Under the pieces are notes generated by a model, which was given only the letters and a program-made list of their open reading frames with translations, made no database searches and had not been told where the DNA came from. From IMG/VR virus record IMGVR_UViG_2693429562_000006: 7,056 nt of DNA; one strand, 5' to 3'. Origin of the DNA: a virus (lineage: Duplodnaviria > Heunggongvirae > Uroviricota > Caudoviricetes). Made by a program: the position numbers and the translations under genes. Position 1 is the first letter of the stretch. The number at the start of each line of letters is the position of its first letter. Shown here one piece after another: positions 2,463 to 7,056 of the stretch.

Positions 2463-2473
2463 NNNNNNNNNNN
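2463..2473. other. Assembly or scaffold gap (11 N)
   Basis: A run of n characters in the sequence. The rest of the IS21-family element is not represented. Confidence 0.95.
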
Positions 2474-2547
2474 TGATGGCGGTCGCCACAGCAACACGTC
2501 TCTGGCGCACTGACGGTTTCATCGTGGGTGTCGGTTATAAATTCTGA
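2474..2547 (+). pseudogene. lom: Second-copy lom 3' remnant (5'-truncated, with an 83-bp internal deletion relative to 1687-1843)
   Basis: 2474-2507 matches 1687-1720 and 2508-2547 matches 1804-1843, ending in the same ...WRTDGFIVGVGYKF-stop. The missing block is bounded by ctggcg in copy A (1715-1720 and 1798-1803). The listed 75-aa ORF 2320-2547 is a chimera reading across the gap. Confidence 0.7.
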
Positions 2548-2574
2548 TTAGCCAGGTAACACAGTGTTATGACA

Positions 2575-2600
2575 GCCCGCCGGTTCAGGCGGGCTTTTTT
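2575..2600 (+). terminator. Putative rho-independent terminator (second copy of the lom terminator)
   Basis: gcccgcc / ggcgggc stem followed by tttttt (2595-2600). The t to c change relative to copy A adds one base pair to the stem. Confidence 0.5.
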
Positions 2601-2611
2601 GTGGGGTGAAT

Positions 2612-5600
2612 ATGGCAGTAAAGATTTCAGGTGTACTGAAAGACGGCACAGGAAAACCGGTACAGAACTGCACAATCCAGCTGAAAGCAAAACGTAACAG
2701 CACCACGGTGGTGGTGAACACGCTGGCCTCAGAAAATCCGGATGAAGCCGGGCGTTACAGCATGGACGTTGAGTACGGTCAGTACAGCGTTATTCTGTTG
2801 GTGGAAGGATTCCCGCCGTCACATGCCGGGACCATCACCGTGTATGAAGATTCCCGACCCGGTACGCTGAATGATTTTCTCGGTGCCATGACGGAGGATG
2901 ATGCCCGTCCGGAGGCACTGCGCCGTTTTGAGCTGATGGTGGAAGAGGTGGCGCGTAACGCGTCCGCGGTGGCACAGAACACGGCAGCCGCGAAGAAATC
3001 AGCCAGCGATGCCAGCACATCAGCCCGTGAGGCGGCAACCCATGCGACTGATGCTGCAGATTCAGCACGTGCAGCCAGCACGTCAGCCGGACAGGCCGCT
3101 TCGTCGGCTCAGTCAGCGTCTTCCAGCGCAGGAACGGCATCAACAAAGGCCACTGAAGCCTCAAAAAGTGCTGCCGCTGCAGAGTCCTCAAAAAGCGCGG
3201 CGGCTACCAGTGCCGGTGCGGCGAAAACGTTAGAAACGAATGCGGCAGCGTCACAACAATCAGCAGCCACTTCTGCATCCACCGCGACCACGAAAGCGTC
3301 AGAAGCTGCCACCTCAGCCCGGGATGCGTCGGCTTCAAAAGAGGCGGCAAAATCATCAGAAACGAACGCATCATCAAGCGCCAGTAGCGCAGCTTCCTCG
3401 GCGACGGCGGCTGCAAATTCTGCGAAGGCGGCCAAAACGTCCGAGACGAACGCCAGGTCTTCTGAAACGGCAGCGGGACAGAGTGCCTCAGCTGCGGCAG
3501 GCTCAAAAACAGCGGCTGCGTCGTCTGCCAGCGCCGCGTCAACAAGTGCCGGGCAGGCCTCAGCCAGTGCCACCGCCGCCGGAAAATCGGCAGAAAGCGC
3601 CGCATCATCCGCTTCAACAGCCACAACGAAGGCTGGCGAAGCCACTGAGCAGGCCACGGCAGCAGCGAGGTCAGCTTCCGCAGCGAAGACATCCGAAACG
3701 AACGCGAAAGCGTCGGAAACCCGTGCAGAATCCTCAAAAACGGCTGCCGCATCGTCCGCCAGTTCGGCGGCGTCATCGGCATCATCGGCGTCTGCTTCAA
3801 AAGATGAGGCGACCAGACAGGCGTCAGCAGCGAAGGGCAGCGCCACGACGGCATCCACGAAGGCGACAGAGGCTGCTGGTAGTGCGACGGCAGCAGCTCA
3901 GAGCAAAAGTACGGCGGAATCTGCAGCAACGCGCGCTGAGACAGCGGCAAAACGGGCAGAGGATATTGCATCCGCCGTGGCGCTTGAGGATGCGAGCACG
4001 ACGAAAAAGGGGATAGTACAGCTCAGTAGTGCGACTAACAGCACTTCCGAGTCACTGGCGGCAACACCAAAAGCCGTTAAGGCCGCGTATGACCTGGCTA
4101 ACGGGAAATACACCGCACAGGATGCAACGACAGCACAGAAAGGGATAATCCAGCTAAGCAGCGCGACCAACAGCACGTCTGAAACGCTGGCGGCAACGCC
4201 AAAGGCAGTAAAAGCAGCCAATGACAATGCTGAGAAACGTCTGCAGAAAGATCAGAACGGTGCGGATATCCCTGGCAAAGACACCTTTACGAAAAATATT
4301 GGTGCCTGCCGTGCCTTCGGTGGGTCAGTAAGCACAACAACAGGAAACTGGACGACTGCACAGTTTATCGAGTGGCTGGATTCTCAGGGAGCATTTAACC
4401 ATCCATACTGGATGTGCAAGGGTTCCTGGTCTTATGGCAATAATAAAATCATTACTGATACTGGCTGCGGTAATATTCATCTCGCCGGAGCTGTCATTGA
4501 AGTAATGGGGATAAAGTCAGCGATGACGATCCGCATTACCACTCCGACCACATCCAGCGGTGGCGGAACAACCAACGCCCAGTTTACCTATATTAATCAC
4601 GGAACAGATTATTCACCTGGCTGGCGAAGGGACTATAACTCCAGAAATAAGCCAACGGCATCAGAGATCGGGGCGCTACCGTCAGGTGGAACAGCAGTAT
4701 CATCAGTTAATCTGGCTTCAAAAGGTCGGGTAGCCGCGCTGACAGACAATACGCAGGGGGCAGCAGGTCTTGAGTTATACGAGGTGTATAACAACGGATA
4801 TCCAACAGCGTATGGAAATATCATTCACCTGAAAGGGATGACAGCCGTTGGCGAAGGTGAGTTACTCATCGGCTGGAGTGGTACAAGCGGTGCTCATGCT
4901 CCGGCATTTATTCGTTCACGACGGGATACGACCGACGCAAACTGGTCGCCGTGGGCGCAGCTTTACACCTCGGCTCATCCTCCTGCAGAGTTTTATCCAG
5001 TCGGTGCACCAATCCCGTGGCCATCAGATACCGTTCCGTCTGGTTATGCCCTGATGCAGGGGCAGACTTTTGACAAATCTGCTTACCCGAAACTTGCAGC
5101 CGCTTATCCGTCAGGCGTGATCCCTGATATGCGTGGCTGGACGATTAAGGGCAAGCCCGCCAGTGGTCGTGCCGTATTGTCTCAGGAACAGGATGGCATT
5201 AAATCGCACACCCACAGCGCCAGCGCATCCAGTACGGATTTGGGGACGAAAACCACATCGTCGTTTGATTACGGCACTAAATCCACGAATAACACCGGGG
5301 CGCATACGCACAGTCTGAGCGGCTCTACAAGTTCAGCTGGGGCCCACCAACATAGTCAGACTGGGCCCAGAACGAATAGCGGGAGTCAACCTACTGGAAT
5401 GTTTCCGGCAGGGAGTACTCAAGTTAGCGGGACTAATCAGGTTGGTATCAGTGGCTCATTAACCAGTGGCACCTCCCAATGGGTAGGTAAATCATCTTCA
5501 GAAGGAAACCATACACACTCACTGTCCGGCACAGCAGCATCTGCGGGTGCACACGCGCATACTGTCGGTATTGGTGCTCATACGCACTCTGTTGCGATTG

Positions 5601-5695
5601 GTTCACATGGACACACCATCACCGTTAACGCTGCTGGTAACGCGGAAAACACCGTCAAAAACATCGCATTTAACTATATTGTGAGGCTCGCATAA
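2612..5695 (+). CDS. stf: Side tail fibre protein, ~1027 aa, mosaic. ATG at 2612 is preferred; an upstream in-frame GTG at 2606 is the ORF-track start.
   Basis: N-terminus [20 protein letters not shown]... and C-terminus ...[31 protein letters not shown] match my recollection of lambda Stf. It contains a long Ala/Ser/Thr-rich low-complexity region (~2950-3990), two fibre repeats, the conserved GAPIPWPSD...SAYPKLA block, and HxH motif clusters in the tip. ggggtg lies upstream of the ATG. Confidence 0.9.
4004..4231 (+). repeat. Two intragenic tail-fibre repeats within stf (about 4004-4099 and 4136-4231)
   Basis: [32 protein letters not shown] and [32 protein letters not shown] are near-identical 32-aa units 44 codons apart. 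Confidence 0.6.
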
Positions 5696-6276
5696 TGGCA
5701 TTCAGAATGAGTGAACAAGCACGGACCATAAAAATTTATAACCTGCTGGCCGGAACTAATGAATTTATTGGTGAAGGTGACGCATATATTCCGCCTCATA
5801 CAGGTCTGCCTGCAAACAGTACCGATATTGCACCGCCAGATATTCCGGCTGGTTTCGTGGCTGTTTTCAACAGTGATGAGTCATCGTGGCATCTCGTTGA
5901 AGATCATCGGGGTAAAACGGTTTATGACGTGGCTTCCGGCGACGCGTTATTTATTTCTGAACTCGGCTCATTACCGGAAAATGTCACCTGGTTATCCCCG
6001 GAAGGGGAGTTTCAGAAGTGGAACGGCACAGCCTGGGTGAAGGATACGGAAGCAGAAAAACTGTTCCGGATCCGGGAGGCGGAAGAAACAAAAAACAGCC
6101 TGATGCAGGTAGCCAGTGAGCATATAGCGCCGCTTCAGGATGCTGTGGATCTGGAGATCGCAACGGAGAAAGAAACCTTGTTGCTGGAAGCTTGGAAAAA
6201 GTATCGGGTGTTGCTGAACCGTGTTGATACATCAACTGCACCGGATATTGAATGGCCAGTAGCACCTATAGGGTAA
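5695..6276 (+). CDS. tfa: Tail fibre assembly protein (chaperone for Stf)
   Basis: 193-aa [37 protein letters not shown]... resembling lambda Tfa. Its ATG overlaps the stf stop in TAATG (5693-5697), suggesting translational coupling. Confidence 0.9.
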
Positions 6277-6362
6277 ATTCGTAATGATTACCTAAATACG
6301 TTATTCTTTTGTTAAAAAAGTGATTTTGCTATAGGTAGGGAGTATGTTCTTGGATTAAGAAT

Positions 6363-6392
6363 AAAAAATCGCCATGAAAGAGCTTCATGGCG
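6363..6392 (-). terminator. Possible minus-strand rho-independent terminator
   Basis: Perfect 9-bp inverted repeat cgccatgaa (6370-6378) / ttcatggcg (6384-6392) with a 5-nt loop. The A6 run at 6363-6368 becomes a T run following the hairpin on the minus strand. Confidence 0.35.
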
Positions 6393-6541
6393 AGTACATA
6401 AACGTACAAAATGTGATGAAAGTAGAGTGGCGTAAGCCACTATATTAAGATATGACAATAGCGAAGAAAAGTAAATAACATTTTATGGACGTTTAATTGT
6501 TAATTATAAAAACTAGAGTGCCCGATATTGTTTATCTTGCT

Positions 6542-6643
6542 TTAAAATAATGTACTCAAACCAAATTTTTGAGCTAAAAGCTCAAATAATATAAATGCAA
6601 TAATAATGTTTAATAAGACAATTAGCTTGCTTTGTATTTTCAT
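6542..6643 (-). CDS. Speculative small hydrophobic ORF (33 aa, MKIQSKLIVLLNIIIAFILFELLAQKFGLSTLF)
   Basis: Hand translation of the minus strand: ATG at 6643 to TAA at 6542-6544. It has a ~18-residue hydrophobic core. There is no clear SD, and AT-rich DNA biases towards I/L/F/K codons, so this may be chance. Confidence 0.15.
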   Translation of the reverse strand: MKIQSKLIVLLNIIIAFILFELLAQKFGLSTLF

Positions 6644-6677
6644 TTCGGAATACTGTTAAGTAACTTTGATGACCCTA

Positions 6678-6706
6678 ACAATAGATCGGAATTTTCTTAG
6701 AGTCAA
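6678..6706 (-). promoter_or_regulatory. Candidate sigma70-like promoter on the minus strand, upstream of the small ORF
   Basis: On the minus strand: TTGACT (complement of + 6701-6706), a 17-bp spacer, then TATTGT (complement of + 6678-6683). This is about 35 nt upstream of the ATG at 6643. Confidence 0.2.
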
Positions 6707-7025
6707 TGGTCACTGTTTTTGCTTGCAAAGCAAATGTTTTGGTGGTTATAAGTCGTCTTAATATAGTCACGCATGCAACTTGTTCCATGCGGAGATTAAA
6801 GATTGGAATATAACGCGAAGATGGAATTAAATTACATTTGCAATAATTAATTTATTATTACTCAATAATTACCGATATTATTATTGTAAATTAATCATTA
6901 GAATGCAAAAAGAAATGTAACGGCAAAATAAGAGGACGATAGCTGAGAAAAAAGCGTGCTTTCCCAATCTGGGGCAAATCACGTCTGAATGACACCTGAA
7001 AACAGGTGGTAGCCTCAAGAAGGCT

Positions 7026-7056
7026 GGTGATGCTGCCAACTTACTGATTTAGTGTA
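7026..7056 (+). mobile_element. IS1 left terminal inverted repeat (element continues beyond the window)
   Basis: ggtgatgctgccaacttactgatttagtgta matches the IS1 left end as I recall it (GGTGATGCTGCCAACTTACTGAT...). Only 31 bp are present. Confidence 0.7.

Follow-up and report, generated by a model that had tools for sequence, protein, structure and literature searches.

The structures and receptors of two fibre systems frame the locus described here, namely the long tail fibre protein gp37 of phage T4 and the side tail fibre Stf of Ur-lambda. The receptor-binding tip of T4 gp37 is available as a crystal structure of residues 785-1026 (2XGF); it holds seven iron sites, with H929 among the iron ligands (PMC6957217), and its residues 932-965 form a tip subdomain, known to contact the receptor, that has been designated the 'receptor specificity domain' (PMC6957217; PMC9659904). 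Stf of Ur-lambda binds OmpC, its tip having been modelled in the cavity of the OmpC trimer, and the N-terminal domain of such fibres provides the attachment to the lambdoid tail (PMC12617516). Moreover, a screen of 255 phages comprises 17 OmpC-specific T4-type gp37 fibres with extensive variation of the tip. The layout of conserved flanks surrounding a variable tip is already published. A literature search on the 'His box' or GXHXH returned no open-access text; work by Tetart et al. from 1996 and 1998 is reportedly tied to this subject.

Here we analyzed a stretch of 7,056 nucleotides (the window) from a virus of the Caudoviricetes (IMG/VR record IMGVR_UViG_2693429562_000006). We consider it likely that positions 5200-5695 encode the part of a lambda-type Stf that lies distally and binds the receptor, with the architecture of T4 gp37 and a swappable tip allele, probably serving adsorption to OmpC. 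The gene is classed as a lambda-type stf on the basis of its PF08400 domain and its place after lom and before tfa (Table 1), and the order lom-stf-tfa is common to the window, lambda, MP1 and E. coli A34. The start codon is probably ATG 2612, yielding a 1027-residue protein (MAVKISG...), which is found in identical form on three IMG/VR contigs (L009, L011 and L016); residue numbers are counted from the GTG at 2606, and are lowered by two if counted from the ATG. The 3' end of lom is located just upstream of stf (2474-2547), and as only some 50 nucleotides of it lie on the stf side of a scaffold gap, the completeness of the prophage is not readable from the window. Within the fibre, the Collar domain stands directly before the needle, and the stf of strain MP1 is devoid of roughly nucleotides 4016-4136, where the identity between the window and MP1 is 0-0.15. 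No named NCBIfam family was recovered for Stf or Tfa.

Table 1. Features of the stf-tfa region (positions in the window; residues counted from GTG 2606)
Feature	Position	Strand	Basis or remark
stf, side tail fibre gene	2606..5695	+	ORF list; GTG 2606, 1029 codons plus stop
Prophage tail fibre N-terminal domain	2612..3013	+	PF08400, E=1.4e-71, aa 3-136
Shaft, Ala/Ser/Thr-rich	3014..3970	+	Composition (A+S+T 75%), as in lambda Stf; alignable with lambda Stf
Phage_fiber_2 repeats, two	4007..4216	+	PF03406, two stretches, aa 468-493 and 512-537
Collar domain (D10 'knob' of T4 gp37)	5003..5146	+	PF07484, E=7e-12, aa 800-847, score above gathering; aligned with 2XGF
Needle stem, putative descending half	5204..5353	+	H-x-H motifs 1-3 (H868/870, H900/902, H914/916)
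SHTHS	5207-5215		H868
GAHTHS (first)	5303-5311		H900
Recombination cassette, ~215 bp	about 5315..5530	+	Replaced in E. coli A34, whose stf is 98-100% identical elsewhere
GAHQHS	5345-5353		H914
Variable insert, 52 aa	5354..5509	+	aa 917-968; matches T4 tip subdomain 932-959 plus linker to H966; presumed receptor-contact surface
Needle stem, putative ascending half	5510..5692	+	H-x-H motifs 4-7 (H969, H983, H992, H1001) and C-terminal strand back to collar
GNHTHS	5510-5518		H969
GAHAHT	5552-5560		H983
GAHTHS (second)	5579-5587		H992
GSHGHT	5606-5614		H1001
tfa, tail fibre assembly chaperone, 193 aa	5695..6276	+	PF02413 Caudo_TAP, E=4.6e-44; start codon overlaps stf stop codon

The initial annotation had recognized seven H-x-H motifs, taken them as the signature of the metal-coordinating needle of a T4 gp37- or lambda Stf-type fibre, and expected the insert between them to govern receptor specificity. 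All seven are present in a single reading frame, the ORF at 2606-5695, and all reside in the last 162 residues of Stf; when the protein was shuffled 20,000 times, 0.44 such motifs occurred on average and never more than 5. The homology is confirmed by the Pfam domains, the adjacent Caudo_TAP gene and, above all, by a phmmer search of the PDB, in which the C-terminal 234 residues of Stf (query 8-241) matched 2xgf_A (chain 28-242) with an E-value of 3.3e-84. All H-x-H motifs are in register with T4 gp37, three before the insert and four after it, with H914 aligned to the iron ligand H929, and the alignment breaks down solely in the insert. The structural residues that are conserved across 43 relatives are all retained, including the glycine equivalent to T4 G964.

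Since the flanks are approximately 75% identical to 2XGF, the tip of Stf would likewise be an intertwined homotrimer with octahedrally coordinated iron ions, and its metal binding and tip geometry are predicted from the homologues. An AF2 model of one chain of the 241-residue tip domain, based on an alignment of 43 sequences, was unusable (mean pLDDT 45, pTM 0.17, no secondary structure), a poor score that is expected for a single chain of an obligate metal-bound intertwined trimer. According to the proposed architecture, three Stf chains would form the collar, followed by a six-stranded needle running down and back up, the core of which would be held by seven metal (iron) ions, with every chain contributing both histidines of one H-x-H motif to each ion. 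The segment between motifs 3 and 4 would then constitute a bulb at the distal end of the needle, in contact with the host receptor, and Tfa would serve as the chaperone folding the Stf trimer.

The sequence of this insert had been quoted exactly, and it is located between H-x-H motifs 3 and 4. As annotated, it differs from that of lambda (a global alignment of 52 columns has 13 identities, with z=2.8 relative to shuffles), and identity to a well-characterised fibre was not found, the nearest sequenced phage tip being 57% identical. Aligning with T4 gp37 residues 932-965, the insert is likely positioned at the needle tip, and by analogy with its homologues it may determine receptor specificity. 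Its divergence is the norm for the T4/lambda family of receptor-binding proteins, not an anomaly. The lower GC content ascribed to it holds numerically (0.50 versus a gene mean of 0.56), but not as a distinctive trait, since 14.5% of the 55-codon windows of stf used as reference (SD 0.053) are as low or lower. The GC3 of 0.385 corresponds to the 5.7th percentile, and the inserts of lambda, Turner and PhiR29_1 are likewise low (0.31-0.39). We therefore rejected low GC as a sign of foreign origin, the dip being neither significant nor private to this allele. Internal duplication, as in T4 host-range mutants, was also considered as the origin of the longer insert and discarded, as neither tandem nor direct repeats occur within it; the sole repeats detected are short ones of the His box, 12-15 nucleotides in length.

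In an alignment of lambda, Turner, PhiR29_1 and a P1-like phage, the flanks are almost invariant and the insert varies in sequence and length, and the ascending half shows almost no variation across 43 family members. Among the 120 nearest database clusters and the reference fibres, about 15 insert classes of 31-53 residues are present, discrete and conserved rather than forming a continuum. Comparison of the window with A34/L018 and MP1/L019, by sliding identity and alignment, places both cassette junctions inside G-x-H-x-H-S-(L/V)-S-G His-box motifs, and BLAST pieces stop at 5322 and resume at 5514. A34 combines the same stf backbone with another cassette, and MP1 and L013 carry the same cassette on other backbones; tfa is 95-100% identical in A34 despite the differing tip cassette. 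The pattern is congruent with homologous recombination in the conserved His-box flanks, by which the insert would be moved between fibre backbones as a cassette. The insert represents a rare allele of one among several interchangeable tip classes, a class that also occurs in lytic T-even phages.

Of 5426 complete E. coli genomes, 25 carry the cassette, with 98-100% conservation, and it is also present in 11 IMG/VR contigs, with 100% identity at the amino-acid level. A DNA search with the insert in 'distant' mode gave no match among 50,697 phage records, and none of the GTDB species-representative genomes encodes a relative of it, so that this collection offers no sign of the allele beyond E. 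coli. The protein clusters of the allele have 2-14 members, versus hundreds for the common E. coli and E. fergusonii classes. A 67-residue query (insert and flanks) yielded two candidates in a set of 5.8 billion proteins; this low number is probably explained by the 90% clustering of full-length fibres, in which tip alleles are masked by representatives that carry different inserts. A 241-residue query was productive. The exhaustive search also drew the unrelated repeat proteins P0123 and P0125.

The T-even relatives of the insert were detected solely by tblastn, not by DNA search: the 26 closest of 34 phage records display 53.7-57.4% identity over 52/52 insert residues (E 4e-9 to 2e-7). In global alignments the insert shares 31/54 identities with the gp37 tip of JK42 (z=15.7) and 30/54 with that of slur03 (z=14.6), and the exhaustive protein search recovered a sequence with 59% identity (P0124). 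On these similarities we assign the insert to the JK42/slur03-type tip class; the tip segment is rare but has precedent, and is not an orphan.

These data bear on two further readings. The composition of the insert, 56% of which is G, S or T, and the repeat proteins drawn by the exhaustive search could suggest a neutral, low-complexity Gly/Ser/Thr-rich spacer, the sequence of which is irrelevant to specificity. We regard this as extremely improbable, considering the discrete classes, the conservation of the allele across the 25 genomes, the QPTG.(F/Y)P.GST and GTSQ(W/Y) motifs that are maintained between the prophage and T-even versions, and the finding that point mutations in the equivalent T4 segment alter receptor use (PMC6957217). 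Alternatively, stf may be a non-functional relic of a cryptic prophage, with the odd insert as a product of decay. Damaged copies do exist, as the GDSC2239PM version is a pseudogene truncated by IS5, P0089 is frameshifted inside the insert and P0122 is a chimeric ORF, and the window is itself a gapped scaffold, the gap lying shortly before stf. However, the 1029-codon frame is open and tfa intact, the family-wide structural residues are all in place, several independent isolates encode exactly this protein, and the insert can be aligned end to end with functional lytic-phage tips, rendering decay very improbable.

For the preferred reading, a functional tip allele, the receptor can be approached through the relatives. 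JK42, a Shigella phage, is the only relative for which our literature search found an assigned receptor, the papers retrieved for slur03 and mar005P1 being confined to genomes and diversity; genome-wide screens with JK42 recovered ompC and envZ, assigning OmpC (bioRxiv 10.64898/2026.04.02.716166). Judging from lambda Stf, T4 gp37 and, above all, JK42, which has the same tip class, Stf most likely mediates fast, reversible adsorption through docking of its tip into the OmpC trimer, and the allele would probably tune the range of OmpC variants or LPS contexts that the fibre accepts. The transfer of the receptor is uncertain, as the insert shares no more than 54-57% identity with the JK42-type tips and exceeds the T4 segment by 18 residues. 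With the same architecture, the tip might instead recognize a sugar of the LPS core or a different outer-membrane protein, which we view as possible although clearly less likely than OmpC. ORF6 of PhiNP uses Glc-II of LPS (PMC9659904), T4 gp37 binds both LPS and OmpC via overlapping patches (PMC6957217), and AV122 is LPS-dependent, as has merely been proposed for AV116 (PMC10844046); together with the limited identity to the OmpC-assigned tips, these cases favor such a scenario. On the other hand, OmpC is used by all three of the nearest experimentally characterised fibres (lambda Stf, T4 on K-12 and JK42), and T4-type gp37 proteins constituted the OmpC-specific group in the 255-phage screen despite their tip variation.

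In phage engineering, it is the tip cassettes of the T4/lambda family that are exchanged to retarget lambda-derived delivery particles and T4-type phages, and the membership in the JK42 class together with the natural junctions in the His boxes (about nucleotides 5315 and 5530) offers a concrete swap design. That the 52-residue allele recognizes a receptor, or a group of OmpC alleles, covered by no characterised lambda- or T4-type fibre appears unlikely; if so, it would provide a ready-made, His-box-swappable cassette with which lambda-derived delivery particles or T4-type phages could be retargeted. Beyond the swap design, it is one further allele in a well-described hypervariable system, raising no new mechanism or open question.

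Compared with the known systems, the tip resembles that of T4 gp37 (2XGF; D10 collar/knob, D11 stem and tip) in its flanks, the register of its seven H-x-H motifs and its collar, and both proteins share an 11-residue C-terminal sequence and a dedicated downstream chaperone. The two differ in the segment between the H-x-H motifs, for which Stf has 52 residues and T4 has 34, with no sequence relationship between them (9 identities, z=-0.5), and in the fibre body, which is lambda-type and not T-even. With Stf and Tfa of Ur-lambda, the locus has in common the order (J)-lom-stf-tfa, the N-terminal domain, the Ala/Ser-rich shaft, the collar, the needle and a homologous Tfa, whereas lambda Stf has 774 residues, eight H-x-H motifs, an extra FDYGTK repeat, a 45-residue insert of another class and another mid-fibre region. 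The 'T4- and lambda-based RBP family' of Magaziner & Salmond 2022 (PhiNP ORF6, more than 200 phages) displays the same conserved distal module of about 215 residues, with divergence centred on T4 932-965 and a conserved assembly protein downstream, as here; the present allele is absent at the DNA level from the 50,697 phage records searched, and the family member PhiNP uses LPS. The common E. coli and E. fergusonii prophage tips (P0008, 49-residue class; P0020, 50-residue class) belong to the same backbone family, and their inserts show a weak but significant similarity (z=4-9; shared (F)P.G.T..S ... GK.SS.G), being just 37-44% identical (19-23 identities in 52-54 columns). Finally, gp37 of the T-even phages JK42, mar005P1, slur03/08/14 and relatives (Mosigvirus/Tequatrovirus) carries the same tip class, there 53 residues long, with two shared motifs, a 13-residue stretch followed by.(F/Y)P.GST..SGT, and GTSQ(W/Y)..KSS.EGNHTH. 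Unlike Stf, these proteins are part of the long tail fibre of lytic myoviruses and have eight H-x-H motifs, and the DNA of their tips, the insert GC of which is lower (0.45), is not detectably similar to the insert described here.

The last 234 residues of the side tail fibre protein (Stf; residue numbers count from GTG 2606) matched the 2XGF crystal chain of the T4 gp37 receptor-binding tip with E=3e-84, in an alignment that is nearly gap-free except for the stretch between the third and fourth H-x-H motifs. All seven H-x-H motifs listed in the initial annotation were recovered in the stf frame (nt 5207-5614), with histidines 868, 900 and 914 ahead of that stretch and 969, 983, 992 and 1001 behind it; 20,000 shuffles of the protein gave a mean count of 0.44 and a maximum of 5. 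In T4 chain numbering, H914/H916 correspond to H929/H931 and H969/H971 to H966/H968, while the invariant Gly967 aligns with G964, which in T4 packs against H929 (PMC6957217). Together with the Pfam domains tabulated below, this bears out the proposed T4 gp37/lambda Stf-type tip. The T4 needle holds seven iron atoms along its length (PMC6957217). As a single-chain AF2 model of the tip was unusable (mean pLDDT 45), we infer the trimer, metal sites and geometry from the ~75% identical flanks, which point to a putative metal-bound trimeric needle as in T4 gp37. That stf is a decayed, non-functional gene is unlikely, considering that the window retains its intact frame, an intact tfa (encoding the assembly chaperone) and every conserved structural residue, and that the identical protein is found again in independent isolates.

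The insert between these motifs, whose quoted sequence matches the window exactly, is indeed unlike the 45-aa segment of lambda (13 identities, z=2.8). In T4 gp37, residues 882-931 and 960-1009 form the stem and 932-959 the tip subdomain, with the LPS and OmpC contact patches lying in 933-953 according to alanine and amber scans (PMC6957217). Since the insert aligns at this position, it takes the place of the T4 tip subdomain, and the equivalent segment, aa 917-962, comprises 46 residues versus 28 in T4, suggesting a larger bulb. No internal duplication accounting for the length was found. The insert had also been described as lower in GC, which holds numerically (0.50 versus 0.56 for the gene) but is not informative, as 14.5% of equal-sized windows of the gene have a GC no higher than this. 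Its GC3 of 0.385 represents the 5.7th percentile within the gene (gene-wide GC3 0.51, computed for the window stf only), and the inserts of lambda, phage Turner and PhiR29_1 are equally low, the four ranging from 0.31 to 0.39, below whole-gene GC of 0.53-0.56. The insert of phage JK42 has a GC3 of 0.26. Repeated exchange with low-GC T-even phages may be responsible for the low GC3.

Comparison with related loci exposed the insert as part of an exchanged cassette. In E. coli A34, stf follows the window at 98-100% identity between 2606 and about 5314; after a PhiR29_1-class insert, this level of identity resumes at about 5530 and extends through tfa. Conversely, the stf of E. coli MP1 combines an identical cassette (100% over about 5216-5810) with a backbone that is elsewhere 88-100% identical in 60-nt windows and is without roughly 120 nt of the fibre-repeat region at about 4016-4136, and in a metagenomic contig (L013) the cassette occurs in a fibre of 946 aa whose middle part differs. 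Both junctions fall within repeated G-x-H-x-H-S-(L/V)-S-G motifs. Conserved 'His boxes' were reportedly described by Tetart et al. in 1996 and 1998 as recombination sites for adhesin specificity swaps, an idea that the junctions fit. Despite the different cassette, Tfa of A34 remains 95-100% identical to that of the window, and this absence of co-variation is consistent with a chaperone acting on conserved fibre parts.

Features of the window and of its Stf protein
Feature	Position	Part	Remark
gpJ-type tail tip protein	70-1176	A	C-terminal end only
lom	1244-1843	A	
stf N-terminus	1865-2233	A	different from part B stf; 122 codons, ends early; PF08400 positions 1-104 only
IS21-family transposase	2320-2460	A	first 47 codons; after short stf N-terminus, before 11 N
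11-N run	2463-2473		separates part A (1-2462) from part B (2474-7056)
second lom		B	3' end only; start of part B, right after N-run
stf	GTG 2606 (probable start ATG 2612), stop at 5695	B	complete
tail-fibre N-terminal domain, prophage	aa 3-136 of Stf	B	Pfam
Phage_fiber_2, two repeats	Stf	B	Pfam
Collar domain	aa 800-847 of Stf	B	Pfam
insert	aa 917-968; nt 5354-5509	B	52 aa; between H-x-H motifs 3 and 4
tfa	5695-6276	B	Caudo_TAP chaperone family (Pfam)
AT-rich stretch	6277-7056	B	GC 0.25-0.35; downstream of tfa

The tip lies entirely within part B, which is 99.98% identical to the isolate-derived IMG/VR contigs L011 and L016, whereas the sequence upstream in these contigs is only 88-97% identical to part A. 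The parts thus match different prophage backgrounds, and the window is a scaffold join in which the N-run links two different prophage tail regions. Within tfa, a full-length match to Rfam RF02111 'IS009' was detected (6038-6236, plus strand; 218 bits, gathering score 117), and as it is wholly inside the coding sequence, this family seems to describe a conserved segment of tfa genes. Just 3' of tfa, a DNA invertase/recombinase gene or a second partial tfa is present in Turner (4821-5411), A34 (5206-5796) and PhiR29_1 (5503-5808), and such genes are a hallmark of invertible tail-fibre segments. The AT-rich end of the window has no ORF longer than 52 codons, and hence neither of these. In MP1 the genes that come after the counterpart of this stretch are sitD-sitC-sitB, encoding an iron/manganese transporter and read from the other strand, which places stf-tfa at a prophage end adjoining the sit genes. 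Several E. coli genomes (GDSC2239PM, 2850-4438 of its locus; matches H142, H144, H151 and others) have a macro-domain protein gene between stf and tfa. In GDSC2239PM the stf that bears the cassette is a pseudogene incomplete at its N-terminus, an IS5 transposase gene lies ~350 nt upstream of it, and its cassette differs from the window at three nucleotides, all nonsynonymous (S927I, Q939K, L952S).

Among the reference fibres and the 120 nearest database clusters, 50 distinct inserts were distinguished, grouped by eye into ~15 classes of 31 to 53 aa. Of 5426 complete E. coli genomes, 25 contain DNA of the present allele (98-100% identity); its protein occurs at 100% in 11 IMG/VR contigs, and neither 50,697 phage records (DNA search) nor 185,579 species-representative genomes yielded it. 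Within the listed protein clusters at 90% identity, it is confined to four (P0002-P0005, 2-14 members each). By tblastn, 26 T-even phage records, JK42, mar005P1 and slur03/08/14 among them, showed 53.7-57.4% identity in gp37 across all 52 residues (E from 4e-9 to 2e-7), and three more phage records reached 44-48%. The T-even tips align collinearly and have motifs in common with the insert (global-alignment z of 15.7 for JK42 and 14.6 for slur03), the abundant 49-50 aa prophage classes of E. coli and E. fergusonii being more remote kin (z=4-9). Besides two broken copies of the allele (P0089, P0122), an exhaustive phmmer search against 1.84 billion representatives retrieved one fragment of a slur03-type gp37 (P0124) and, as unrelated repeat proteins, P0125 and P0123 (E=3e-4 and 3e-10, over multiple stretches). 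The motif of the latter two, SGGRPTG.LPAGTTQTT, resembles a 17-residue segment of the insert, probably by chance or composition. P0122 (938 aa) is a chimeric ORF. It corresponds to window-type Stf from the fibre repeats into the insert, as far as GTSQWV, and continues as the mid-region of another fibre, ending in a second collar and needle, both complete, that bear an RDGRRFNPS-class tip; its origin is either misassembly or genuine recombination at a breakpoint within the tip.

Regarding function, Stf of Ur-lambda speeds adsorption via reversible OmpC binding (PMC12617516; PMC11338833), its tip having been modelled inside the OmpC trimer cavity (PMC12617516), and the T4 gp37 tip binds OmpC and LPS (PMC6957217). 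JK42, the top tblastn match at 57.4% and among the closest sequenced-phage relatives, has OmpC as primary receptor (ompC and envZ emerging from genome-wide screens) and Kdo as secondary LPS determinant (bioRxiv 10.64898/2026.04.02.716166 supplement). As lambda Stf, T4 gp37 and JK42 all use OmpC, we lean, with modest conviction, towards OmpC docking as the most likely mechanism for the window fibre. The main competing explanation, recognition of the LPS core by the tip, draws on LPS users within the same fibre family, PhiNP ORF6 (PMC9659904) and AV122 (PMC10844046), and appears rather doubtful to us. Which OmpC variants or LPS contexts the fibre accepts is probably fine-tuned by the allele of the insert.

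The design described here is the normal one for a well-characterised fibre family: a conserved module of ~215 aa, with divergence concentrated around T4 932-965 and a conserved assembly gene behind it, has been published for >200 phages (PMC9659904), and that lambdoid and T-even phages exchange the tip module is textbook knowledge (PMC3157838). The insert allele itself is uncharacterised and rare, yet belongs to a tip class known in lytic phages, one of them with a mapped receptor.
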